64,000 nucleotides of DNA from a virus (IMGVR_UViG_3300001373_000069), one strand, 5' to 3'. Positions 3,181-50,238 are shown, numbered from the stretch's first letter. A program made the numbers and translations. The notes: generated by a model from the sequence alone, not told the origin.

Positions 3181-4238
3181 CAGTTACCTTATACCTTTCA
3201 ATATAAGCCGGACTATCCCTTAATCTTTAAATTTCCAAAAATACCCAAATGCCTTAATAGTTTTACCATTACAGCATCTTATTATACCAGATTGTCTATT
3301 ACTAGGTAATCCAAGTTTAATAATTGCTAATGCAACAGTGTCGAAAGCCTCGACAAATCCATTTTCATCAGATTGAATCACTCCAGGATATTTAGACATA
3401 CCTTTATTAAAAGGTATTCTACCCTTAAGTCTACTCTTTTGTTCTTCTGTAAATAGTCTTCCACTACTAGCTTTAGATAATTTTAGTTTTGTATCTTTAC
3501 TATGCTTCTTACCTTTCATAGGATGTATAGCACCTGGTTTATTCAACCAGTGACCATTTAAACCAACAGACTCTCTCCAACTATCAATTTGATGCTCGGT
3601 ACGTTTTCTACCTAAAGCATTATTTGATAATTTTAACCTAACTATTGACTTATTGGATTCTGATAATCCTGAAAAGGTGTCACCGCCATCTCCTCCCATA
3701 GTCATATTAGTTAAAGAAAACCCCCACTGAATCAATTGACTGATCCAATATATTTCTAATTCATAAGCATCTTGTTTAGTTTCACAACTATCAAGTTCTT
3801 TTATTAGAGGTTCTAATCCTTTGCTTCTTAATGACTTAATCCAAGAGAGACGTTTATTCCATTTTCTAGTTTCTTTTTCAGCCTCATCCAAGTTCTTTAG
3901 ATGACCGTAAAGTCTTTTTGATAAAGACTTCTTAGTATACCCTACATATCTAACCTCATTAGATATAGGGTCTTCAAGTGTATAAATGTAATATGTTTCC
4001 ATAGTACTATTATAGTAAAAACTAGTTGCATAATCATAGATATAATAAAGATTCCCCCATTATAGTCTCTGAACCTTGAACTCTTTAAAGTTCCTTGGCT
4101 GCGGATTATCCAATTCAACATCTTGTTACCATACCATAATGATTAGTTATGCCGCGTATAGTTCGCACTATACGTTTGGTAATGTTGACTTAAGGAAGTC
4201 CCCGCAATTTAGAGGGTTTTATAAGGCCCATAGTATTA
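3181..4238 (-). other. Group I intron (approx. 1058 nt) interrupting the helicase gene, carrying a GIY-YIG HEG
   Basis: The 5' exon ends in U (..gct) followed by an in-frame stop. The intron's 3' terminal base is G. The intron contains a free-standing HEG ORF and GC-richer structured-looking flanks (4003..4235). Confidence 0.6.
3220..4002 (-). CDS. GIY-YIG homing endonuclease (intron-encoded)
   Basis: N-terminal 'YYIYTLEDPISNEVRYVGYTKKSLSKRLYGH' GIY-YIG motif. Confidence 0.85.
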   Translation of the reverse strand: METYYIYTLEDPISNEVRYVGYTKKSLSKRLYGHLKNLDEAEKETRKWNKRLSWIKSLRSKGLEPLIKELDSCETKQDAYELEIYWISQLIQWGFSLTNMTMGGDGGDTFSGLSESNKSIVRLKLSNNALGRKRTEHQIDSWRESVGLNGHWLNKPGAIHPMKGKKHSKDTKLKLSKASSGRLFTEEQKSRLKGRIPFNKGMSKYPGVIQSDENGFVEAFDTVALAIIKLGLPSNRQSGIIRCCNGKTIKAFGYFWKFKD

Positions 4239-5375
4239 AGCCTTGTACAGCGATGTAGCATAGGCATAATCAAACACAGCAAACGACTGTAAGAATTGAT
4301 TGTAGCGGCTCCATTGACCATATTCGGCGGCCTCCTTGTAACGTTGTCTACGAACTATCTCGTAAGCAGTCTGAGCTTCCTCTGTGTTCATCACGACTGG
4401 TATTCCGGTAGCTGTAGTTGGTACATTATCCAGGGCTAGATATGCACATGGTATACCAAAGGGACCTAACTGATAAGCTATCCCAGTAACTACCGAAATC
4501 TGACCATTATGGATTATAGGAGATCTGTTAACTGAAAATCCTCCTCGAGATATGATTATCTCATTTCTTTCGAATTGATGGGAGTTCTTTCCGTATATTC
4601 TCTCTCTTACCCCAGTATTTAAAAGCTCAATAGTCGAGTTCTTATAGGCTAGTATACGAGTATGATTCTTATCGTTACGATTACTAATTATATCATTAGC
4701 GGCCCGATCAACAGTACAATGAATATCATTCATAAATCTATAACCGGTATCACCTCTCATACAATCCTGTCTACCATACTCTTCTTCGAGAATATACTTA
4801 TTGAACGGTAGATCTTTATTGATGTTATCGATCTCTTGTCTAATCCTGACAGCTAATTCACCGATCGGTCCTTCGAATCGTTGCGAAGTAGTCAACTCAG
4901 CATCTATTCTATCAAATTCTTGTTTTACTGGAGGTAATTGAAATGGGTCGCCAACCACAATTAAGTGAATATCACGAATACTAACCTCGTGCAGAATTGC
5001 GTCAACCAGCGGATCATCTATCATTGATGCCTCATCTATCAAAAGAATCTCAGTACCATCAATTTTCATGTTACCGTTCTTATTTCTTTTAAATGAGATT
5101 TCTTCCGAGGAGTCGTCCATTTGCATGCCAAGTAGTTGTGCTATTGTAAAACTAGTTCCAATAGACTGCTTCAATACTTCTTTAGCAGAGTGTGCTATGG
5201 TTCCACCAACTACTTTCCTTTTCTCGTGCTGCAAAGCCTCTTTTAACATAAAAGTCTTACCACTACCAGGAGGCCCCGATAATACAAAGAACTCGTTTGC
5301 TTGAGCAGGTTTACTTAAGAAATCACGGATTCCTTCGGCAGCTACTTTCTGTTCCTGAGTTAATGTTGATATCAT
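4239..5375 (-). CDS. SF1 Dda/RecD-like DNA helicase, 5' exon
   Basis: Walker A 'GPPGSGKT', motif II 'LLIDEASMI', motif III 'VVGDPFQLPPV'; ORF stops abruptly inside motif V (..FDYAYATSLYKA*). Confidence 0.8.
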
Positions 5376-12493: not shown

Positions 12494-14574
12494 ACTTTTA
12501 AATCAATATATTCCTTAATCTGAGCGCCTAAAATAAGCTCTTCTGTTTTATCGTAAAAATACTTCCTTGAATACAATTCGATTAAAGCAAGATAATCTTT
12601 AGTCTTACCAAAGAAATCTCTCCAGTAGTTGACTTCGTCAATAAGCAAAATATCAACAGAAGAAATATGATCTACCGTATCACATAGGTAGTCAGGCACA
12701 CTAGAATTGATAATTTTGAGGATATCGGTGGGGTCTTCCATTGATAATATACCTTCAGCACCTAATTGTAGTTGAATACAGTCTCCAAAGAAAACAGTAT
12801 CCATAGTACTTGTATTATAGGCATATGACCTATCAAACCACCCTTTAGTTATTTTAACTAGAGCTACATGTTCATCAGGAAAGATATTCTCTACTACTTC
12901 TGGTAATAGTATTGATTGTGCATTGTACTCGGCAAACAACTTATTAATAACCGACGCGGTTGCAGCAGCTTTAATATCATCTCCGAACACTAACTTACCG
13001 GAATTGGAATCATAAGACTTAACAACAAACTCATTAAGTGTTTTATACTTAGGTGAATTCATAAAATACTTCTCATTATCCTTAGCAATCAATACCATCT
13101 CAATGGGTTTAGCATTAGGGTTGAAGCAAGTGTAATTAGGAACACCGTTATCATCCAAACTATCCTTATCTCCTCTCCAATCATTATGACAAGATAGATA
13201 ACCATGCGGAAACTGATTTGCAATATTCTTCATATCAGACCTGTCATTAGATGTACCGTAGATAACTACTTTAGAAGGATCATAGAGGGATGGGATATTA
13301 CTTATATTGGTATCATAAGCACTGAACACATAGTTATTGTATGACTTATTGATCTTATGAACTACAATTTGAGCATTGGCTTTTCTAATAGCACCTCTAT
13401 CGATAATTGTATTAGAACTATCATCAGGGTCTCCTCCCGAATCAAGTTCACCTGCTAAATAAGCTTCCATAGTATCATCCGGAACTTTAACATCCGAATA
13501 CTTAAGAATCTTAGCAGAAGATAGAACTAGTTTCGCGAATAGATCAGCTTTATAGAACTCATCTTTAGGTTGAATCAACACAAAAGCGCCGACAGTATCA
13601 CTTAAGTACCTATCAACGTACATATCTGCTTTACCTTCGGAAAAATATACCGGAAGTGCAAATGCATCTACTCCAGCAATATTACCGCGCTCAATCTTAT
13701 GAGTATACCTATCGTATATAACACGACGGGCCATCAACTTATTTCCAATCATCTCAATAACTTTAGTAGAATACTCTACTTGTGTATTGAGGGGATATCT
13801 AACGTTAGTAATAGCACTGGCATCAATAATTGACGCTAATCTACCAATAACACTCGAGTTATTACCATTCTTCAACGCAGACATAGTTTGAGCGGCCTTA
13901 ACCATCCATTCCATGTAGTCTGTTTCACTAGACAAACTATCATTAACAAACTTTGCAGCTGTTAGCGATACCCGGTCATAAGCTTCCAGTACAGCTTTAC
14001 GAGTCTTTGGAGACCATACAAGAGCTTCTCTTGACGGAGTAACCTCAACATCGTTTACACTTAATATGAAGCCTACAGCGCCTCGTTTGGGTTCTATTTC
14101 AAGTTCATTAAAAGCAATGAAACCATAATTAATCAAGGCTTTACCTGTACCCAATAGAACGTGTGGCTTGTCATATACAGTGGATTCTGAGATAATAATA
14201 TCATCATCTCTGTATAATTCTTTAGCAGCGATATCTACATTGGTATAGGATAAAGCACCTTGAGCTTTAGTGTATACTTTGATATTAGGAAGGTACATTA
14301 ACTGAGACTGTATAGCCTCAAATAACAACTTCTTATTATGCTTTTTAATTTCAACCTGAACCTCTAACCCATTCTTTTCCGAGGTTTCTTCGTAATAAGC
14401 TATACAATCATCTGTTAACTGTAAATACTCATTTACTTTTCCACCACTTATTTTGGGAGTTACAGGGTCCACTTTGTCTAAATAGACGTCGAATTTGAAC
14501 TTTTTACCATTATATCTGTTGATTACCCTAAAAGAGTCAACATTCAATGATAGAGCTACTTTACTACCTAACAC
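12490..14574 (-). CDS. Large ORF (694 aa, GTG start as reported), candidate downstream exon of the split GHKL/Hsp90-like ATPase gene
   Basis: N-terminal '..VLGSKVALSLNVDSFRVINRYN' aligns loosely with Hsp90 'GFYSAFLVADKVTVITKHN'. The in-frame open frame extends only 3 codons upstream to a TAA that lies next to the repeated 14-mer. Confidence 0.5.
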   Translation of the reverse strand: MLGSKVALSLNVDSFRVINRYNGKKFKFDVYLDKVDPVTPKISGGKVNEYLQLTDDCIAYYEETSEKNGLEVQVEIKKHNKKLLFEAIQSQLMYLPNIKVYTKAQGALSYTNVDIAAKELYRDDDIIISESTVYDKPHVLLGTGKALINYGFIAFNELEIEPKRGAVGFILSVNDVEVTPSREALVWSPKTRKAVLEAYDRVSLTAAKFVNDSLSSETDYMEWMVKAAQTMSALKNGNNSSVIGRLASIIDASAITNVRYPLNTQVEYSTKVIEMIGNKLMARRVIYDRYTHKIERGNIAGVDAFALPVYFSEGKADMYVDRYLSDTVGAFVLIQPKDEFYKADLFAKLVLSSAKILKYSDVKVPDDTMEAYLAGELDSGGDPDDSSNTIIDRGAIRKANAQIVVHKINKSYNNYVFSAYDTNISNIPSLYDPSKVVIYGTSNDRSDMKNIANQFPHGYLSCHNDWRGDKDSLDDNGVPNYTCFNPNAKPIEMVLIAKDNEKYFMNSPKYKTLNEFVVKSYDSNSGKLVFGDDIKAAATASVINKLFAEYNAQSILLPEVVENIFPDEHVALVKITKGWFDRSYAYNTSTMDTVFFGDCIQLQLGAEGILSMEDPTDILKIINSSVPDYLCDTVDHISSVDILLIDEVNYWRDFFGKTKDYLALIELYSRKYFYDKTEELILGAQIKEYIDLKV

Positions 14575-14783
14575 TTTGTTATCTTAAAGGCTCTTTATCC
14601 TTTAATTCTCATACTTTACCATAGTATGATGTTCGGACTATGTCATCACCCTAAACCAGGGTGTCGCGCGCTCGTGTCGTTTTACTGTCCGTTCTGGACT
14701 CCATACGTTAGTCTCTGCTCCTTCAATGCATTCCTGCAAAGCTTGGATCACGATTACCCTTCAAGGGAGGGCTTTCCGTGAGT

Positions 14784-15428
14784 TCACGCGATTTTAATGG
14801 GGCTTAGGATTTCATCGACTAAAGCCTTTTTTCTTTTTAAGTACCATGATGAATCAGAGTATAATAGACCAACCAGTAATTCAACATCAGTTTTTCTACG
14901 CACTCTAAGTACATATATTTTCCCCTGTTGTCTAACTGTTGAATGAATACCATAACTGTTAAAAAAGTCTTGTAGTGGTATTATTTCAGGTTCAGTAATA
15001 CACAAAGTCATATTCCAATATGGTTTTCCATCTGTAATTTGCTTTGAATAACAACCATCGCCATCTATATAACCCCTGATATAATGAATAAATAATTCTT
15101 CAGGTAAATCTAATAATACCGATTTTACACCAATATTAACTAAATCAGTATAAAGCTCTTTATTATAAGACCTCAATACTACCTTGTTATTAAATCGTTC
15201 CTCATTATTCCACACATAACTATCCTCGCTATATGATATATTAAAGAATGGAAATTCACTTTCAAATCGTTTAATAATTTCCTCATCTTTAATACTTAGT
15301 TTTAACTTACTACAACTGCTATATGCAATTTTAGAGTAATGCAAACTACCATCAGCATGAAAGAAACCTAGAAAATATGCTTTAGCTTCTGTGTCAATAT
15401 TCTTAAATTCATCATTATAAGATACCAT
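14784..15428 (-). CDS. LAGLIDADG homing endonuclease
   Basis: 'YFLGFFHADGS' and 'YIRGYIDGDGC' LAGLIDADG motifs. Confidence 0.85.
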   Translation of the reverse strand: MVSYNDEFKNIDTEAKAYFLGFFHADGSLHYSKIAYSSCSKLKLSIKDEEIIKRFESEFPFFNISYSEDSYVWNNEERFNNKVVLRSYNKELYTDLVNIGVKSVLLDLPEELFIHYIRGYIDGDGCYSKQITDGKPYWNMTLCITEPEIIPLQDFFNSYGIHSTVRQQGKIYVLRVRRKTDVELLVGLLYSDSSWYLKRKKALVDEILSPIKIA

Positions 15429-15790
15429 AACTATTTATTTGGATTAATTGTAAAATCGTACCAAATATATTATAGTTAGAAAAATTGATTGTGTTTACCC
15501 CATTTCCCCAAAGCATCTTTATTCGCACGCTTTGTAGAATACATTTTATTATTTATATAGGCTCTTTATCCTATACTTTCTACAATTTATCTTGTTATAG
15601 TTGTAGAGTAGACTATATCTTTAACTTGCAAACCGCAAGCAGTGTCCCGCTTTCGTGGAGAACTTTATAGCTTTGGCTTTACCCAGTAAGCGTCATCTCT
15701 AGTCGTTCGGCATTTACAATTATTTCTAACTGATTTAGCACGGGATTGTCCTCTTCAGGAGTTTCCCCGTTTAACGGAATTTATACTCAA

Positions 15791-16429
15791 CTATTCTATT
15801 AAATTACCTTCTTTGTTGTATACTACCCAATGAAATCCTTTACATGTTGTACTGTTGATAGAAGATCTGATAATATGTGATGCATGATTTAGTCCAAGAT
15901 CTCTGAAAGCTTGATATGGATTGTCATATGTATGCACTAAATTCCATTTAGAATCATATTTCTCGCACTTTCCATACTTACCAGTTCCTCTTCTATTTGT
16001 ATTACCAAGTTGTGCAGTTTTAGAAGATTCACTAATCTTTTTCCATACTTCTTGAGTATGTAAATGAGACTGATCTCTTAATTTTGCTTTAGCAGACATT
16101 TTGGCTTTAGTGGATTTACCAAACCTAAACCCAGTAGTTCCCAGACCAGGATAATCAGCATTATAACCATTACTAACGGTATCTAACAAATTAACCCAAT
16201 AGTACTCCATTTGTAAACAATATTCTGGGGGATAAGTCTCGAGAATCTCAAATCTAAATGATTCCTCTCCGTACTTGTTCCAAGAACGTTGTAAATGATC
16301 ATTATAATGAGTATTTGATCGTAATTTACGTCTGTGATCTGACCATCTAGAACTAAAATATCGTTGAGCTGACCCTACGTACATTTTTCCATTAACAGTA
16401 TTTGTGATAGTATATACACCTGATTTCAT
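15791..16429 (-). CDS. GIY-YIG homing endonuclease
   Basis: 'SGVYTITNTVNGKMYVGSAQRYFSSRWSDHRR'. Confidence 0.85.
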   Translation of the reverse strand: MKSGVYTITNTVNGKMYVGSAQRYFSSRWSDHRRKLRSNTHYNDHLQRSWNKYGEESFRFEILETYPPEYCLQMEYYWVNLLDTVSNGYNADYPGLGTTGFRFGKSTKAKMSAKAKLRDQSHLHTQEVWKKISESSKTAQLGNTNRRGTGKYGKCEKYDSKWNLVHTYDNPYQAFRDLGLNHASHIIRSSINSTTCKGFHWVVYNKEGNLIE

Positions 16430-31318: not shown

Positions 31319-31463
31319 ATGTACTAGAGGGACTTGAACCCCCGACCCCGCCCTCCCAGGCACGTATACTGTCAGTCTAGTCTCTTGTACTTCAAGACTT
31401 CAAACAACTTATCGTCGACGGTGGTGTTTTAACCACTACTCTAACCAACTGAGCTATAGTACA
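31319..31463 (-). ncRNA. tRNA-like element (145 nt): tRNA-Ile paralogue with ~65-nt insertion between anticodon arm and T-arm, and a non-canonical (6- or 8-nt) anticodon loop
   Basis: Perfect 7-bp acceptor TGTACTA/TAGTACA. D-arm is TAGCTCAGTTGGTTAGAGT. The 24-nt T-arm segment gagggacttgaacccccgaccccg is identical to tRNA-Ile at 36038..36061. Anticodon region is GTGGT-TAAAAC-ACCAC, followed by CGTCGACGATAAG..GGGAGGGC before the T stem. Confidence 0.55.
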
Positions 31464-31467
31464 TTTG

Positions 31468-31540
31468 ATGTGATGGTGGGATTCGAACCCACGGCATACC
31501 CCGGGTTAGGGAGCTGCTCTACCAACTGAGCTACATCACA
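31468..31540 (-). tRNA. tRNA (73 nt), anticodon loop CUAACCC: formal anticodon AAC (Val) with C37; assignment uncertain
   Basis: Acceptor TGTGATG/CATCACA, D-arm TAGCTCAGTTGGTAGAGC, T-arm GTGGGTTCGAATCCCAC. Confidence 0.65.
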
Positions 31541-32607: not shown

Positions 32608-32709
32608 TTTATATTTGTATTAAATGGTTTCAAGGGAGAAAGGTATCGAGACTCATTTCCGCGACGGTCTCTGTTGGATATCTCCGCTTTCGTATAATAC
32701 CTTTCTTTG

Positions 32710-32781
32710 TGGGGATGATGGGATTCGAACCCAAGCCTCCGAGCTTTTAGACCCGGTATTCAACCGCCGAACTGCGCCCCC
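32710..32781 (-). tRNA. tRNA-like gene (72 nt) with apparent 8-nt anticodon loop UCUAAAAG (contains CUA/UAA triplets); anticodon undetermined
   Basis: Acceptor GGGGGCG/CATCCCC (one mismatch), D-arm GTTC-GGCGGTT-GAAT, anticodon stem CCGGG/CTCGG, T-arm TGGGTTCGAATCCCA. Confidence 0.5.
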
Positions 32782-32786
32782 AACTA

Positions 32787-33380
32787 TTACTCTCCTTGGA
32801 GAATGTTAATTATATCCCAATACGGAACATCCTTTTCCTTACATGCTTGTATTATCTGCTCAGTAGAGTATATTGGTTTATGAGCTCTTACATATGTATC
32901 GCGTGACTCTTTATACCGGAAATACTTCCAGTTAGCAGTATTTCTACCCATTCTAAGACGTATCCATAATTCAAGACTAGTGGTTTCTTTTTCATTCCAC
33001 CCTTCTTTAGGCAATAAAGAATAAATAGGAACATTACAACCAAGAAGATGACAGTCTTCTAAGCGTATATTAATCTCATCGATAAGATGCTTTTCAGCTG
33101 CTTCACGCGAACTAAATACTTCTTTCTCCATACCATCTAAGTCGTATTTACTAACAATGAAATTAGATACTTTACACATAGTATTATATACCCAACAGGT
33201 CTCCCCTTCATGGATATCTACACCATCCACTGATCGTATAGCTACTCTAGAAGCAACTTTTTCCCAAAACTCAGGATATTTCTCTGGTTGTATAGTAAAC
33301 CATTCATTAGTTGTACTGACAATCACCTTACCAAGTTGAGGAGAGCCTGGATACTCTTTCTTTAATTTATAAGATTTCAT
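32787..33380 (-). CDS. hypothetical protein (197 aa)
   Basis: ORF track. Confidence 0.5.
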   Translation of the reverse strand: MKSYKLKKEYPGSPQLGKVIVSTTNEWFTIQPEKYPEFWEKVASRVAIRSVDGVDIHEGETCWVYNTMCKVSNFIVSKYDLDGMEKEVFSSREAAEKHLIDEINIRLEDCHLLGCNVPIYSLLPKEGWNEKETTSLELWIRLRMGRNTANWKYFRYKESRDTYVRAHKPIYSTEQIIQACKEKDVPYWDIINILQGE

Positions 33381-34456
33381 AAACGTCTGATTATTAATTA
33401 CTTAGTGGAGATGGCGGGAATCGCCTTAAAAAATAATTTCGCACAGTTCCATATTTATTATTATAATGCTATTATACATTATAAAACATAAAGATATGAA
33501 AACAATTAATTGTACATGTAACTACTGTAATAAATCTGATGAAGAACACATTAACACATAACCAAACAGTAGAATTTTTACAAGAAATAGCAAAATTAAT
33601 AAATACTTAACTTTCGTTAAGGGTTGGACTATATCATCACCCGTTCTGGGTGTCGGATGCTCTAGGCTCACCTTAGTGTCCTTAGTCTCTGAACCTTCCT
33701 CATTCTTCCATGAGGCTCGGCTGCTGATTGACATGTAAATTAAATAGCGTTCAGTATGTACTGCTTCACTTTAATGGGCTCTACATAGTCCCAACTATTT
33801 AATTTATTTAGCTTTCCAGCAATTCTTCCAATTATTTAACTGAGTATTCCTACTCAGTGGGTCCGATTCCTTTTAAACCCGCGTCCAAACATCCGGTAAT
33901 ATTAGTGCTACTTACGTGCGTAGCTGGAATGACGTCCAGCACCTAGGACCAACTGTTTACAGCTGGAGCTCCACCACCTTATTTTGAGAAAACAAGGAAA
34001 ACAACTTGCTGATTTTCTGTTTCTAGGATCACAGCTACCCAATCGCCATATTAAGCTGCAAGAGCCGTAGCGAAAGACATTACGCGAACGTTGTCCTCTA
34101 TAGTTCGATGGACTACCATCATCTTGCACGGACTAATACCCACTGACAATGCTGTCAAAACCAGTCATCCCCGATTATTATTTCATTCGATATAATCCAT
34201 AACAGAGCCACATAATAACTGAAAATTCAACATCTTTTGTTGTAATTAATTCAACGATAGTTATTAGTGTAATACAGAACATAGCAGGATGTTTTATGAA
34301 TACTTCTTTCATTCGATATCAATTTGAATAAACGACATTGTTAGAAAAGATACACCAGTACAAAATGCAATGACTTTGATTGGTTCAGTAGAGGGATATA
34401 GATCAGGGTGCATAATAGAGAATGCTATGAAAAGCATACCCACAACAATACCCCAT

Positions 34457-34864
34457 CTAACTTTTGTTTTCTTTCGCATTATCTTCGTAGTATTTAATAT
34501 AAAGTGCTTGTTGTCTAATTCCTTCAACAAACCCAGCCATTCTAGCTGCTTTAAAGGATCTCTTTCTGCCTTGGATCATACCATTGGCATCAGCGAGTAA
34601 AAGTACAGCAGCTTTTAATTGTTTAGCGTCTTCACACTGGTTAACAGTTTCATAACCACACATTGATTTGAATCCTTCCACAGCATTAAATCCGTATATA
34701 AGCTCTTCAGCATTACTTACCAAATCTCTACCCCAATTATTTAAAGTATCTTCTGGTTTGGGACTACCATAATCTCTAAGATACTCACCTACATGTTTAA
34801 CAAATGATAACAATGTCACATACCAATGGTGACTACCGATTGGTGAATTAGTACTACTTTCCAT
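34457..34864 (-). CDS. hypothetical protein (135 aa)
   Basis: ORF track. Confidence 0.45.
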   Translation of the reverse strand: MESSTNSPIGSHHWYVTLLSFVKHVGEYLRDYGSPKPEDTLNNWGRDLVSNAEELIYGFNAVEGFKSMCGYETVNQCEDAKQLKAAVLLLADANGMIQGRKRSFKAARMAGFVEGIRQQALYIKYYEDNAKENKS

Positions 34865-34965
34865 ATAATGAATAGTTTAGATTATTAGTAAACAGCCCAC
34901 TTAACACTCGGTATAGATGTATAGGGCTGTAGGCACTGGGATACTATCCCGGTGGGGGATACCGA

Positions 34966-35292
34966 TCATCTCTTTCGAAAGCGATCTTTACGTATAAAGT
35001 CAAAGTGTAGTGTATCACCCACCTTGTACTTAAAATCAATAAACCCGGGAAGATTAATACTATTAAGAGTAGTAATCATACTAGTATCCTGTAGACACTG
35101 AACAATAACAAACGATTCAGGAACAACAAAGTTGTTGACGGGCTTATAATGACCATCTGATACAACAATGCATTTAACATTGTAGTACTTAGGTATACGT
35201 AAGTCTTCTCTTATCTTTAGACCATAGAAAGCAGCTATAAACAAAGCCATAGCAACAAAACACATAGTCATCAGATCATCTAGTTGTCTCAT
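34966..35292 (-). CDS. hypothetical membrane protein (108 aa)
   Basis: N-terminal TM helix 'MTMCFVAMALFIAAFYGL'. Confidence 0.45.
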   Translation of the reverse strand: MRQLDDLMTMCFVAMALFIAAFYGLKIREDLRIPKYYNVKCIVVSDGHYKPVNNFVVPESFVIVQCLQDTSMITTLNSINLPGFIDFKYKVGDTLHFDFIRKDRFRKR

Positions 35293-35312
35293 GAATTTAA
35301 TTTAGAGTTAGA

Positions 35313-35386
35313 GGACACGGAGGGATTCGAACCCACGGTTGTACGGATTTGCAGTCCGTTCCCTTGAGCCGCTCGGGCACATGTCC
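35313..35386 (-). tRNA. tRNA-Cys (GCA)
   Basis: Acceptor GGACATG/CGTGTCC, anticodon stem ACGGA/TCCGT, loop CUGCAAA, T-loop TTCGAAT. Confidence 0.8.
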
Positions 35387-35469
35387 ATTTGTGGCTGGAA
35401 TCAGTTGTACACCCTGTCCAGCGAGACTGTCTATGTGCCTTTCGGCAGAGATTACGACAACACCATTTG

Positions 35470-35543
35470 TAGCGGGAACAGGACTCGAACCTGTGACCTC
35501 CGGGTTATGGGCCCGGCGAGCTGACCAACTGCTCCACCCCGCT
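35470..35543 (-). tRNA. tRNA-Met (CAT), initiator-like (three G-C pairs closing the anticodon stem; close to E. coli tRNA-fMet)
   Basis: AGCGGGGTGGAGCAGTTGGTCAGCTCGCCGGGCCCATAACCCGGAGGTCACAGGTTCGAGTCCTGTTCCCGCTA. Confidence 0.75.
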
Positions 35544-35713
35544 ATTTATCTTTCTGCAACATGATGACATGGTTTCTTATACTTGTACGAATCAAAGATC
35601 TCTTCTTTAAGCTTGTCTGCTTTAATGACATCACCCTTAGACTTTAACTCATTATAAGCTGTCCATCTTTCATCGTCGCTAATGTTTGGTTTCTTTTCTC
35701 TTTTCATTGTATT

Positions 35714-35789
35714 ATTACTAGTAGTGGCAAACGGATTTGAACCGCTGACCTCCGATCACCTCCTGACCGACGCTCTAACCGTTGAGCTA
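35714..35789 (-). tRNA. tRNA-like gene (76 nt) with non-canonical anticodon arm; loop region reads CAGGAGGUGAUC (11-nt perfect Shine-Dalgarno / complement of 16S 3' end GAUCACCUCCU)
   Basis: Acceptor TGTGGTG/TGCCACT (1:72 mismatch), canonical D-arm TAGCTCAACGGTTAGAGC, T-arm AGCGGTTCAAATCCGTT. Only 9-nt-loop (TCGGT/ATCGG) or U33-less 7-nt-loop pairings are possible. Confidence 0.5.
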
Positions 35790-36029
35790 CACCACAATAT
35801 GTCTTTACCTATACAGTTCTAAGCCTGTAATATTAAACCTCAAGGGAACACTGGAATTGACACCAGTTACGCAGATTCCTCCACGATGGACTACCTTAAG
35901 CCTTTTTGATCTAACAACCTCAACAAACAGCGTTCCCTTAGAAGAACTACAAGTTGCGTTTGTAAGTGCTCCGCCGTATGGGTGTCAATCCACCGATCTT
36001 CCTTGTTGCTTGTTTATGGTAGGTAAAAG

Positions 36030-36103
36030 TTGAGAGTGAGGGACTTGAACCCCCGACCCCGAAAGTATCAGTTTCGTGCTCTAACCAACTGAGCTAACTC
36101 TCA
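36030..36103 (-). tRNA. tRNA-Ile (GAT)
   Basis: Acceptor TGAGAGT/ACTCTCA, anticodon stem CGAAA/TTTCG, loop CUGAUAC. Confidence 0.85.
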
Positions 36104-36239
36104 ATACAAACAGGAGACACTTGTTTTTCTCACCTTAGAAGTTTGAATTGCTGTATGTCTCCTTAGTAACAGGGGTCTGTTAACGTGTCAAATTAAAAGT
36201 TTGATGTTTGTTTGCTTGCTGCAAGACCCCTTATTATTT

Positions 36240-36461
36240 TTACATAGCTGGATTTTCTACCCAGCCAGGTTTCAGCTTATCCATTTTGGTTAGCTGACCT
36301 GTGTAATCTTCGTATTTATCCCATTCCCCGGCACAGTGAAACACCACAAAACAATACCCACCCATTACATCAGGTGGCACTGTCTTAACTTTACCATTCT
36401 CGTACTTTTCGGGAGGACAATTAGGATAAGGTTCATAATGAACTAAATCTCCTTTTTTCAT
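36240..36461 (-). CDS. hypothetical protein (73 aa), paralogue of 39597..39857
   Basis: Shared 'GD(L/K)VHY.PY..C...E..NG.VK' and C-terminal 'W(V/E)' motifs. Confidence 0.5.
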   Translation of the reverse strand: MKKGDLVHYEPYPNCPPEKYENGKVKTVPPDVMGGYCFVVFHCAGEWDKYEDYTGQLTKMDKLKPGWVENPAM

Positions 36462-37171
36462 TATCTAAAAGTATTGTTGGGGAACATTTTTGGTAAATCG
36501 CTGTAAGCCATTAGTATGGCACCCTCTGGTAAATCAGTATTACCCTTACCATCATACTCAATTCCTGCTTGAAGTATATGTGGAACACCATCTTTCATAA
36601 AGAAACCATCGATATATGCATAGTAAACCTTGCCTTTAATGTAATGACTACCAAATAGTACATTATCATCCGCATCATAAATCTTCTTAAGAAATTGTTC
36701 CGGAAGTTCTTTGAATGGATAAGGACCAGATACCGAATATCTACCCTTATGAAACTCTTTGAGGGCATTGAATTCCTTATCAGCAAATTGCTCTGGAGTT
36801 AAATATGACAGACCCTCGATACCAATTTGTACATAGCAACGATTCCACTCTTGGTCAGTGTGGGTAGATGCTATTAAACAAATAGTTGTGTCAGGGTACG
36901 ATGGATGTTGTTTTATCTCTATGATCTCATACTTATACTCTTTATAAATAGGAGTCTTACTTTTTAACTTCTTAGGTTCACGTTTGTTAACAGTACCCTT
37001 AAGAGTTAAGTTGGGTTCATATTCATATTTCCAATGAAAATCAATATCACAATAATCAGGTAATTTAGTTTCCCAATTAAACACAGACTTATGTTCTCCA
37101 TTCTCCCATGTCCACATAGTAGAATAGATCTTATTCCAATTTACTACAAATACCTTATCTCCTACTTGCAT
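36461..37171 (-). CDS. hypothetical protein (236 aa)
   Basis: ORF track. Confidence 0.5.
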   Translation of the reverse strand: MQVGDKVFVVNWNKIYSTMWTWENGEHKSVFNWETKLPDYCDIDFHWKYEYEPNLTLKGTVNKREPKKLKSKTPIYKEYKYEIIEIKQHPSYPDTTICLIASTHTDQEWNRCYVQIGIEGLSYLTPEQFADKEFNALKEFHKGRYSVSGPYPFKELPEQFLKKIYDADDNVLFGSHYIKGKVYYAYIDGFFMKDGVPHILQAGIEYDGKGNTDLPEGAILMAYSDLPKMFPNNTFR

Positions 37172-37409
37172 ACAATTCCTCCCATTTAAGACTAGCTATA
37201 AGCCAGAAGTTTAATTTCTCAGGAGATGAATCCCATTTAAACCCATTAGCAAGTAATTCACTAGCATGGGTAATATCCATTTCATTACGTATAAGACAGT
37301 TTGCTTCAAACTTATCAAACAAGTCGTTTTCACGTAAGAATAGTTCAAACATTGCTAAGTCAGCCTTATTAACAAACTTAAGCATTCTAGCTCTATACTC
37401 TTCAAACAT
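37155..37409 (-). CDS. hypothetical protein (84 aa)
   Basis: ORF track. Confidence 0.45.
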   Translation of the reverse strand: MFEEYRARMLKFVNKADLAMFELFLRENDLFDKFEANCLIRNEMDITHASELLANGFKWDSSPEKLNFWLIASLKWEELYASRR

Positions 37410-37430
37410 ATGATTTAATTTATTAATTAG

Positions 37431-37502
37431 TAAGCAGGGAAGGATTCGAACCTTCGCTATTCATTCCACAGCCATGCGTGTCTACCACTGCACCACCTGC
37501 TC
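37431..37502 (-). tRNA. tRNA-like gene or pseudogene (72 nt): good acceptor, D- and T-arms but no base-paired anticodon stem
   Basis: Acceptor GAGCAGG/CCTGCTT, T-arm GAAGGTTCGAATCCTTC. Positions 27-43 (CATGGCTGTGGAATGAA) have no complementary 5-mers. Confidence 0.4.
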
Positions 37503-37593
37503 ATGTACCCCACCGAGTCAGTATCCTTCTAAGGGTGGGGTCTCTTGTGTAATTGCGTATTCAGATGTATTTATCTTAAGGCTATCATTTCTT

Positions 37594-37686
37594 AGGTAGT
37601 TGCTCTATCACTGAGCTACACGGCCATTTGTGTATTATATTTAGAGGCCGTGACGGGACTCAAACCCGCGACCGACTACTTAAAAA
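37594..37686 (-). ncRNA. Permuted or split tRNA-Lys(UUU)-like locus: 3' half (loop UUUUUAA, anticodon 3' stem, T-arm, acceptor 3' strand) lies upstream of a 20-nt spacer and the 5' half (acceptor 5' strand, D-arm, anticodon 5' stem)
   Basis: Minus strand 5'->3': ..TTTTTAA-GTAGT-CGGTC-GCGGGTTTGAGTCCCGT-CACGGCC-[TCTAAATATAATACACAAAT]-GGCCGTG-TA-GCTCAGTGATAGAGC-A-ACTAC-C.. Acceptor halves are perfectly complementary (GGCCGTG/CACGGCC) and anticodon stem halves ACTAC/GTAGT are perfectly complementary, but they are in the reverse gene order. Confidence 0.5.
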
Positions 37687-37840
37687 CATACTTATGTATA
37701 TTTTTGTAGTTAGACACCTGACGCTTTATTACCGATAAAGGTCAAGCTAAGTCTTTTGGATCAACACTAAGTCTAATTTGCTGCTGTGGAGCGTCAATTA
37801 AGGCTAAGGTTAAGACTAAAGCTCGAACCAATAATATCGT

Positions 37841-38647
37841 TTAACCTTTTAGGATGAACCCAAAGATTTTATCTGCAGTTAACGTTGATTTAACCACTTC
37901 ACACTCGTTGCACTCTTTCAAGGCTTGAGTTACAGCAATGATCAAATCCGAACGGCGTTTCATTGCAGCTGCACGCTGGCGGTGAGACCATTGACCAGAA
38001 AACTTCTGAATAGTATAATCACCAATTTCGCGAACAACAGTTTTGAAAGCTGTTTTTGGTTGATATCCGGCGGGTAAAGTTTTCCCAACTAAGTTAGGAT
38101 CTTCTAGGATATATTCATTCTTATCAGTTGTGCGTGATATACCTGCAACCATTGGAGTTTCCCATACCTTTCGATCGGCGTACTCATCAAAGGCAGTTTC
38201 AGCCCATACTTCAGAATCAGAACGAACTGGGATTACAGAAAGCATTGCTTCCATATCACCCATATCTTTGGATTCCAATAATGATTTCAACCGTAACAAT
38301 TCCAATGAAGTGAATTCGCCCCAAGAATCGCCACCGACAACCAATTCAGCTTTCGCTAAACCCATTGCGTTAGTCTTTTCTTGTGAGAACAATGCCTCAA
38401 TAAACTGTCCCGACTCTTTAATGAAGTAGTCGACCTTCTCATCAACAGTAGTAATTACTTTCACAAAACTACGTTTGCTTGGCTCATCAGCAGTACCTTC
38501 CTTTGCAGTATAGGTATTCTTTTCACCAAGGAATGCACCTTGTGATTTGTTGTAAAACACTGTATGGTCAGTGACCATATGTTTGAATTTTGCCCTTAAT
38601 GCATCTGTTAGGGCTAACAGTACGTTTAGTTTAGTACCGATTTTCAT
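37841..38647 (-). CDS. hypothetical protein (268 aa)
   Basis: ORF track. Confidence 0.5.
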   Translation of the reverse strand: MKIGTKLNVLLALTDALRAKFKHMVTDHTVFYNKSQGAFLGEKNTYTAKEGTADEPSKRSFVKVITTVDEKVDYFIKESGQFIEALFSQEKTNAMGLAKAELVVGGDSWGEFTSLELLRLKSLLESKDMGDMEAMLSVIPVRSDSEVWAETAFDEYADRKVWETPMVAGISRTTDKNEYILEDPNLVGKTLPAGYQPKTAFKTVVREIGDYTIQKFSGQWSHRQRAAAMKRRSDLIIAVTQALKECNECEVVKSTLTADKIFGFILKG

Positions 38648-48942: not shown

Positions 48943-50238
48943 AGGCGCACTTCAACAAGTAACTATTAGGTCGACACGAAAAAAGCAAATCCCAAAAGGA
49001 CCAACTAACCAACGCAACTCACTCATCATACCAATACTAACCTTAAGGTGATTGATACAGACAGCAAGTAAATGTTTTACACCCTCACCCATAACCATAC
49101 TTAGTGCTCTGAGCATCCCTAAGGACTCTAAACTAAGTGATCCATACTCACAATGGTATGATTAATTATGGTATTACTCCCGGTTCTTTAACCCTAAGGC
49201 CCGATTTGTAATAATCATTTACATGAGTTCAGGTGATCTGTGCTGGTACTAGGAGACGACTCCCCATACAGACAGCAATCAAATATCGTAGACTCTCGTA
49301 GCGAGAGAATAATGTGTGTAGTCATTGGCACTCACTAGTACGTCGACCCAACAGCATCAGAGAATCACTCCTCTAACACCGTGTGGATCAACTACTAACA
49401 CATCGCATCGGATGCATTAATACTATAACATTTAAAAGTATGAGCCCAAATAAAAAAGCCAACCACCCAATTGCGCGAGGGTAGCTGGCTCAAAAACAAT
49501 TAATCAATTAACCAAAAATCACACTATGAAGACTCCAACTCTTGACAAAGCTGTACCGTTTGATTCACTCCGGACCGGTTGTCCGTGTCATGGTTAGTTT
49601 TATATTATCCTTACCAATGATGTCGTCACACACCATTACTCCTGCTCAAGAGTATTCAAAGAATAATACGCCGTGGTATACGCTACCGATCTAATCCCAC
49701 TAACTCTATTAATAGAGAAGGAGATATGTCGTGTGCTTGTATTTCGGTCATGTCAATGGTATTCCTGCCCATTAAGCATATGTTACAACGTTGGAATGTC
49801 TTATTAGGACTCGTTGTTGGTTATGGCATGTCGTAGTCTACCATACTACCACACGTTTACCTGATTTTATAGTCTGCACTAACTTGTTCTTATCCAAGCG
49901 ATTAGGATTCCATAATGATAGTATTGATCGCATTTACTAACTATCATAAGAACACAGTAGCCCCACAGGTTTGTCACGGTTTATGATCCGTAAAGTTGAG
50001 GTTCCGCCACCTCCGTCCTACCATTAAGTTATATCTAACGGTAGCAAACTTATCTCGACGTTTTATTTGTGTATCCGAGAATGCTTGAACTGGGTCATCT
50101 AGTTAGGATACCCGTTGTTCAGTAATCTTTATATGATAGCAATAGCCTCATTACAATGATTAGTAATTAATAAAATTAGAACTCAAGAAAGGGGACTACA
50201 CGAATGCAATCCCCTATCAAAGTCTTTGTGCCCGGATC

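Follow-up and report, generated by a model that had tools for sequence, protein, structure and literature searches.

tRNA-shaped RNAs with probable non-decoding anticodon loops in a large T4-like phage of Bacteroidota: covariation of one loop with a hairpin of a Y RNA module

What is the role of a transfer RNA (tRNA) gene whose anticodon loop departs from that of a codon reader? The question is raised by a 64,000-nucleotide (nt) stretch of viral DNA (IMGVR_UViG_3300001373_000069), called the window throughout, in which a reading made from the sequence alone had noticed several tRNA-like genes with unusual anticodon arms and had suggested for them non-decoding roles or recoding functions. Three tRNA-like genes, all on the minus strand and named A, B and D here (Table 1), were indeed recovered by ARAGORN and Rfam at or near the places indicated. 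Each folds into a cloverleaf with acceptor, D, anticodon and T arms and exceeds the gathering score of the Rfam tRNA family RF00005, with 40.7, 34.8 and 44.3 bits for A, B and D respectively. None of them combines the 7-nt loop, U33 and purine 37 of a decoder, position 33 being C in A and G in D and the loop of B being 8 nt long. The anticodon is not kept among orthologues either: the triplets of A vary, and the loops of B and D are unlike those of their relatives in loci L008 and L119. Taken as a whole, the explanation preferred here is that A, B and D are genuine, selectively maintained tRNA-shaped non-coding RNAs which are not codon readers and whose loop serves as a pairing address; judged from sequence comparison, we consider this probable, with appreciable room left for the alternatives weighed below.

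Table 1. Positions of the tRNA-like genes and associated features in the window, counted from its first nucleotide
Feature	Position	Strand	Characteristics	Basis
tRNA-like A	37431-37502	-	3-bp D stem; loop GCUGUGG; discriminator A; no encoded CCA	ARAGORN, Rfam
Putative docking segment GCUGUGGA (A anticodon loop plus one nt)	37465-37472	-	complement of 37783-37790	
H3 hairpin	37507-37541	-	covarying stem; nearly invariant loop GAAGGAUAYUGA; equivalent in more than 30 loci	
YrlA-like Y RNA	37548-37732	-		Rfam RF02553 and fold
H1, long imperfect hairpin	37750-37830 (borders approximate)	-		sequence comparison and minimum-free-energy folds
H1 apex UCCACAGC	37783-37790	-	partner of A loop	
DUF7873 protein gene	37841-38647	-	640 homologues	Pfam PF25283, E=1.3e-36
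tRNA-like D	35721-35796	-	7-nt loop AGGAGGU (G33); U1.U72	ARAGORN, Rfam
tRNA-like B	32710-32781	-	stem CCGGG/CUCGG; 8-nt loop UCUAAAAG	ARAGORN, Rfam
Structured element of about 70 nt, 3' of B	32635-32704	-	contains ACGAAAGCGGAG	
Ro60 (TROVE + vWA) homologue	23297-24901	-		Pfam DUF2828 + DUF7788

Related loci were gathered with an alignment of homologues of the DUF7873 protein, whose gene lies upstream of A, from IMG/VR, metagenomes, assemblies and genome bins. This yielded about 140 loci (numbered L001 onwards where they have to be told apart), the first 100 of which contain 336 matches to a general tRNA covariance model. One of them, L008, is a 175-kb phage whose DUF7873 protein is 67% identical to that of the window.

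The evidence that carries the explanation comes from A. Its anticodon loop together with one further nucleotide (GCUGUGGA) is a perfect 8-nt complement of the apex of H1 (UCCACAGC), a hairpin whose apex lies 290 nt upstream. At least 14 other distinct loop-apex sequence pairs are present in relatives, among them GCUAUGG-CCAUAGC (L005, L008 and L036), GCCACGG-CCGUGGC (L038), GCUUGUG-CACAAGC (L011), GUCAGAG-CUCUGAC (L037), CCUGCGG-CCGCAGG (L041), CCCAAGA-UCUUGGG (L075), GCCAAGG-CCUUGGC (L081), AUAUAGG-CCUAUAU (L032), CUCCGCA-UGCGGAG and GGCUGGG-CCCAGCC; the loci with a pair also include L085, L106, L034, L067, L066, L060 and L012. The tRNA-side segment of the listed pairs overlaps the anticodon loop, and the partner was located in or near the H1 apex where this was checked, namely in ten close relatives by eye and in 13 of 38 unsupervised folds, the apex being taken there as the loop of the best hairpin in the minimum-free-energy fold. 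The middle triplets of family A (UGU, UAU, CAC, CAA and others) follow the H1 apex accordingly. As the complementarity stops short of the stems, it is not a remnant of an inverted duplication.

With the unsupervised apex, a match of at least 7 nt was obtained for 21% of the matched against 0.36% of the mismatched loop-apex pairs. Among the loci with distinct anticodon arms such a match is present in 16 of 36, a count that none of 5000 permutations reached, and a binomial estimate for the loop-apex complementarity is 5e-26. Because loop and apex covary, it is strongly supported by comparison of these sequences that the A loop would act as an RNA-RNA docking site and not as an anticodon, and this role would account for the departure of the loop from the canonical form and for the weak stem in the window copy. 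The non-decoding role suggested by the sequence-only reading is thus strongly supported for A, while for B and D it is plausible and unproven.

The cloverleaf of A is itself under selection as judged from 11 aligned orthologues. In this alignment 88.5% of the cells are paired, as compared to 44-54% once the partners are slid, and 14 of the 20 pairs show double changes; the observed values were reached by none of 500 shuffles. Changes on both sides were noted in every one of the 7 acceptor pairs and in 3 of 5 pairs of each of the T and anticodon stems. To say that A has no pairable anticodon stem, as had been done, was an overstatement: in the window copy two G.A mismatches enclose three Watson-Crick pairs (G.A/C-G/A-U/U-A/G.A), and the orthologues have four Watson-Crick pairs with compensatory changes in addition to a G.A that is conserved as the top 'pair' of the stem. 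Family A is found downstream of DUF7873 in most of the loci, usually at about 300 nt, accommodates up to 50 nt of inserted sequence in its anticodon or variable region and sits 4-6 nt past the H3 hairpin. In relatives where A has a long variable arm, A contains UCAAUAUCCUU, a complement of the H3 loop (11 nt in L047), and in distant relatives a run of U follows H3. Loci L130-L152, from gut/rumen Bacteroidales bins, carry about 310-370 nt past DUF7873 one high-scoring conserved tRNA scaffold, in which canonical anticodons differ among close elements (GCA, UGU, GAU, AGU, AAU, CCA).

Both partners of the presumed contact belong to a module of conserved order (DUF7873 gene, H1 hairpin, YrlA-like Y RNA, H3 hairpin and tRNA-like A), and the sequence from the DUF7873 stop codon to A is conserved in relatives. 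The DUF7873 homologues are mostly about 55-68% identical, and by synteny their gene is always directly upstream of the H1/Y RNA/tRNA-like module; no PDB sequence match was obtained for the protein, nor did its confident AlphaFold2 model find a fold match in PDB with Foldseek. H1 starts about 12 nt past the stop codon, and the hairpin is kept in relatives. The Y RNA has a closing stem (37732-37713 with 37567-37548), within which lies a tRNA-like domain made of a 3' half (37679-37646), a loop and a 5' half (37625-37596). This element had been listed as a permuted tRNA, and the 3' half does lie upstream of the 5' half; its identity, on the other hand, is probably that of a YrlA-like Y RNA. Two other candidates, a permuted group I intron and a two-piece transfer-messenger RNA (tmRNA), were dropped after the match to the Rfam YrlA family (RF02553), which scores 45.9 bits (E=3.6e-9) over 37572-37696, short of the gathering score of 69. 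The layout can be made out in the sequence and is kept in relatives: inside an outer stem with a CGAA-like motif stand a T arm, a D arm and a 7-bp acceptor-like stem, whose capping loop ranges from about 17 to more than 200 nt across relatives.

A homologue of Ro60 is encoded 13 kb from the module. Its AlphaFold2 model (predicted local distance difference test score 86.8) matches Ro60 structures over the full length, Foldseek retrieving the Ro autoantigen 1yvr (E=8e-9, TM score 0.56), 9kop of phage phiLo and the Deinococcus Rsr 2nvo. By analogy, this protein would be the expected partner of the Y RNA, and phage Ro60 with Y RNAs is documented (PMC12135203). In mycobacteria, YrlA with a 7-bp acceptor stem is cleaved by RNase P and receives CCA, and a second small RNA, YrlB, adjoins the Y RNA (PMC4201824). 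The phage module resembles this YrlA/Ro60 (Rsr) system in its apparent tRNA-like domain with a capped 7-bp acceptor-like stem inside a stem with a CGAA-like motif, in the Ro60 homologue of the same genome and in the second small RNA beside the Y RNA, comparable to YrlB (PMC4201824). It differs in adding a separate complete cloverleaf gene after the Y RNA, in the covariation of the cloverleaf loop with an extra 5' hairpin, H1, which is not reported for described YrlA RNAs, and in being tied to a DUF7873 gene with Ro60 13 kb off and the Rfam score under threshold.

As for the contact itself, the nearest analogies are the pairing of the T-box specifier with an anticodon and that of the A-rich loop of human immunodeficiency virus type 1 (HIV-1) with the anticodon loop of tRNA-Lys3. 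In both, an RNA hairpin reads an anticodon loop by Watson-Crick pairing and the two change together. Unlike in the T-box, where a 3-nt codon is presented in an internal specifier loop, the phage pairing spans the whole 7-8-nt loop and an apical loop, and the 'tRNA' is a dedicated phage RNA from the same module; moreover, the module lies 3' of the DUF7873 gene and shows no T-box sequence or antiterminator and no Rfam T-box match. With mascRNA/MALAT1, A has in common that a longer structured non-coding RNA has a tRNA-like element directly at its 3' end; the A loop, in contrast, is under sequence covariation, for which a pure processing signal has no need, and the Rfam match to mascRNA is insignificant (E=2.8). 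The parts are of known kinds, i.e. phage tRNA-like genes, a YrlA-type Y RNA and Ro60, while the literature searched yielded no dedicated cloverleaf RNA that covaries, over its whole anticodon loop, with a hairpin of a Y RNA module.

For B, the 5-bp stem (CCGGG/CUCGG) with an 8-nt loop that had been proposed is a valid parse, and ARAGORN gives instead a 6-bp stem with a 6-nt loop and a closing U.G pair. The 8-nt loop is the conserved reading, because the loop UCUAAACC of the orthologue at L008 14905-14980 cannot close in the same way. An identical 14-nt block, ATACCGGGTCTAAA, is common to the two genes, whose anticodon arm is the best-kept part; four compensatory pairs were read from the sequences, and the flanks are unalignable. 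An ordinary tRNA-Asn(GUU) takes the slot of B in L118, the closest relative, and a degenerate tRNA-like does so in L116. The structured element of about 70 nt follows within a few nt of B and is conserved at L118 2666-2735 and L116 2634-2705. RNAalifold assigns it 21 pairs, 2 of them compensatory. The element has an outer stem GAAAGGUA/UACCUUUC, and no Rfam family match was obtained for it; its motif ACGAAAGCGGAG recalls the CGAA motif of Y RNAs. A tRNA-shaped handle beside a small RNA fits B, and leaves the identical 14-nt block unaccounted for.

The gene D had been placed at 35714-35789, which is 7 nt off. An 11-nt Shine-Dalgarno sequence had been reported for its anticodon region, and AGGAGGUGAUC is indeed present in the RNA (complement GATCACCTCCT on the plus strand at 35754-35764); the loop, however, comprises AGGAGGU only, and the GAUC(G) part of the 11-mer is the 3' strand of the 6-bp anticodon stem (U.G, C-G, G-C, G.U, U-A, C-G). 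The orthologue at L008 14414-14488, identified by reciprocal best nhmmer matches, has the loop CAGAAGGG. Here also the anticodon arm is the best-kept part, with CGGUCAG.AGG common to both, five compensatory pairs can be read from the sequences, and the flanks are unalignable. Upstream of this orthologue (L008, about 14100-14190) there is a tRNA-like whose T arm is the same as that of the gene D and whose anticodon region is greatly enlarged, for which the tools make no call. In the window, a 232-nt non-coding stretch between tRNA-Ile and D (35797-36028, minus strand) gives a better fold than its shuffled versions (z = -2.5); it matches no Rfam family and is not kept in L008.

The idea that the D loop pairs with the anti-Shine-Dalgarno sequence did not hold up well, and from the sequences compared it is improbable. 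The exact 11-mer occurs once in the window, as against about 0.03 expected by chance in our own arithmetic (0.76 with one mismatch), and the exact 17-mer of the arm was met elsewhere in ordinary ribosome-binding sites of unrelated contigs only. D stands alone among 212 unique tRNA-likes, with a Shine-Dalgarno match of 8 nt where the next best has 5. By inspection, CAGAAGGG of the orthologue could pair with the tail of 16S ribosomal RNA (rRNA) only in a shifted register with G.U pairs. The 16S rRNA of Bacteroidota ends in GGAACACCUCCUUUCU, which would cut the D match to 8 nt, and Shine-Dalgarno pairing is little used in this phylum. Upstream of the open reading frames (ORFs) of the window, AGGAGG is found in none of 76 cases and GGAG is almost nil, TAAA being enriched instead (45 of 76, vs a 13% background), and AGGAGG shows no enrichment in the window.

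Several points weigh against the preferred explanation. The support for docking is entirely comparative, and AT-rich hairpins give a high background, 12% of the mismatched pairs reaching 7 nt. In 21 loci added later from genome bins, mostly of a distant gut/rumen clade, the tRNA loop is canonical (CU-NNN-AA) and the corresponding tRNA scores 64-72 bits with varying triplets; a clear complement of at least 7 nt was noted in only about 4 of the 21, and 2-3 of these complements lie at +96 to +115 and not at the apex (+44 to +87). Docking would therefore be restricted to the clade around the window and not universal. The YrlA match falls short of the Rfam gathering score, as given above. B and D have one clear orthologue each, pattern scans of IMG/VR recovering the L008 contig only, and the loop of a third B-like gene, in L119, is 9 nt long and unrelated. 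Finally, no partner for the B and D loops was found within 3 kb on either side, in the window or in L008: in an RNAduplex scan of the whole window and L008 the best duplexes were no better than those of shuffled loops, and exact complements of the loops within 3 kb are at chance level and inside ORFs.

A scheme consistent with these data can be proposed for the preferred explanation. With the tRNA body kept (acceptor, D and T arms), A, B and D would be acted on by RNase P, tRNase Z and the CCA-adding enzyme and would mimic tRNA towards tRNA-binding proteins, and the anticodon loop would be an address for RNA-RNA pairing or other sequence-specific recognition. The module would be transcribed as one unit, and RNase P and tRNase Z would process it at either end of A and at the capped acceptor stem of the Y RNA, the RNase P cut at the 5' end of A also making the 3' end of the Y RNA/H3 piece. 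A would then dock on H1, in cis or in trans, and the outcome, upon assembly with Ro60, would be a Ro60-Y RNA particle with two tRNA-shaped modules, which speculatively might capture or distract tRNA-binding host factors. The loops of B and D may, on the strength of their conserved anticodon arms, work likewise on other RNAs. A broader proposal would make the tRNA fold a programmable docking adaptor, A being addressed to H1, D to the 16S tail and B to some host or phage RNA; we hold it as a tentative idea with the odds against it. If true, the particle would through such tethers gain control of the ribosome or of host factors that bind tRNA.

The alternative that survives best, and which is nonetheless unlikely, is that decoder tRNAs had their loops remodelled against host anticodon nucleases, or serve as uncleavable decoys for these. 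It has been proposed that mutations in the anticodon loop allow phage tRNAs to escape VapC, PrrC and colicins (PMC10264068), and the genes described there are, as here, phage-encoded tRNA genes with deviant anticodon loops. The fast turnover of loops between related phages, as in an arms race, the phage RNA quality-control genes (Ro60, Y RNA and a probable tmRNA) and the mild changes of tRNA-Met (C33) and tRNA-Val(AAC) (C37), which could still decode, speak for it as well. However, the published cases are point changes that keep the 7-nt loop and the anticodon (PMC10264068), whereas here length, U33 and 'anticodon' all change, with loops that lack U33 and/or are 8-9 nt long. Furthermore, the family A triplet tracks the H1 apex and not any codon, and neither a host nuclease nor a cleavage motif could be linked to the A, B and D loops.

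Quite unlikely as the full account is a second alternative, by which the three genes are processing handles only, releasing neighbouring RNAs or messenger RNAs through RNase P and tRNase Z in the manner of mascRNA in MALAT1 or of tRNA punctuation, with a loop whose sequence is irrelevant. The position of A just past the Y RNA/H3 hairpin, that of B directly 5' of a conserved structured RNA, the ordinary tRNA-Asn(GUU) in the slot of B and the insertions tolerated in family A are what such handles would lead one to expect. Against this, no part of B is better conserved than the anticodon arm, with its 14-nt block, and this arm is well kept in D while the flanks are saturated, and the A loop covaries with H1. 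A processing role can nevertheless be combined with the preferred explanation, in which the loop has a function of its own.

It is very improbable that B is a +1 frameshift or nonsense suppressor and that an odd tRNA set recodes late genes. B shares with frameshift suppressors and with yeast mitochondrial tRNA-Thr1 an 8-nt loop on a normal cloverleaf, this loop is conserved in two phages, and expanded loops can decode, as tRNA-Thr1 does (PMC3113583). Unlike in these, U33 and purine 37 are not kept in B and the loop length varies in the B family: a four-base reading of the loop places C where U33 is expected, and at position 37 one phage has A, the other C. The tRNA-Asn in the slot of the closest relative and the unrelated 9-nt loop in L119 also disfavour a frameshift suppressor. 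The recoding functions once suggested are not supported by the genes of the window, which under the standard code show normal density, with 76% coverage by ORFs of at least 100 amino acids and large genes intact; no clear gain was obtained from reassigning any single stop codon, and no recoding sites were found in the window. That the genes are decaying tRNA pseudogenes is scarcely credible, for their low covariance-model scores (35-44 bits), the anticodon-stem mismatches of A in the window and the acceptor and T-stem mismatches of B are set against compensatory substitutions in all helices, amid unalignable non-coding DNA, and against loop sequences conserved between orthologues.

The source of the window is a large T4-like phage of Bacteroidota. 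Its G+C content is 37% and its genes include rIIA/rIIB, a Dda-type helicase and a large terminase. The host phylum is assigned from relatives of a marker protein, 33 of 36 genome bins being Bacteroidota by our own reading of their titles (the other three are one Bacillota, one Pacearchaeota and one unnamed). No close phage relatives were found in INPHARED, nor in IMG/VR by single-protein searches. A minus-strand 'RNA island' of 12 kb (31.3-43.1 kb) houses most of the 15 tRNAs that ARAGORN finds in the window. With Rfam, one more tRNA-like, which has an insertion, was recovered, together with four group I introns and a Hatchet ribozyme.

The earlier estimate that at least five of about 17 tRNA-like genes are atypical was borne out and is, if anything, an undercount, since tRNA-Met with C33, tRNA-Val(AAC) with C37, the tRNA-like with an insertion of about 70 nt and the 'permuted tRNA', i.e. 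the YrlA-like Y RNA, are to be added. Odd anticodon loops (not 7 nt, without U33, or with pyrimidine 37) are present in 46 of 207 unique ARAGORN tRNAs of relatives, and are therefore a trait of the lineage and not peculiar to the window. The tRNA-Met(CAU) (35469-35543, minus strand) has C33 for the near-universal U33 in its loop CCCAUAA, and C33 is kept in a distant relative (L008 12971-13045, CCCAUAU). The tRNA-'Val'(AAC) (31467-31540, minus strand) combines A34 and C37 in the loop CUAACCC; its syntenic orthologues, which follow a Band_7 gene at L005 16351-16423, L008 18618-18699 and L118 3831-3904, have unrelated odd loops (UUCAUC, GUAAAU, CGUGGAG). The tRNA-like at 31319-31463 (minus strand), with about 70 nt inserted in its variable region and the loop UUAAAACA, scores 37.6 bits in Rfam and is missed by ARAGORN.

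Other RNA elements of the window are also on the minus strand. A probable phage tmRNA gene at 33405-34173 has a T loop interrupted by a group I intron. Its 5' end is GGGGAUGAC with G3:U70, its tag frame ends in ...ATALAA-UAA, and removal of about 33424-33875 restores a T arm, GCGGG-UU|CGAUU-CCCGC, the Rfam intron core being 33605-33884. ARAGORN rejects this gene even with the intron removed, and its Rfam tmRNA match is weak. Three more group I introns lie at 4022-4248, 14608-14867 and 15580-15842, two of which split a gene region at 14.6-16.5 kb, and a Hatchet ribozyme at 49859-49997 gives a full-length Rfam match of 77 bits.

The mimicry of tRNA by Y RNAs and the odd tRNAs of phages are each known already. 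What the covariation data provide is a concrete and testable contact, by which a tRNA-shaped RNA would read a hairpin of a Y RNA module with its whole anticodon loop, the loop-apex pair having been rewritten at least 14 times in evolution. Such a contact would account for one class of phage tRNA genes that are called with an 'undetermined anticodon' and asks for caution in reading these genes as suppressors or as helpers in codon usage. To our knowledge, Ro60-Y RNA particles have not been studied in Bacteroidota, and the docking of A on H1 may offer a handle on the function of those that phages of this phylum would form.

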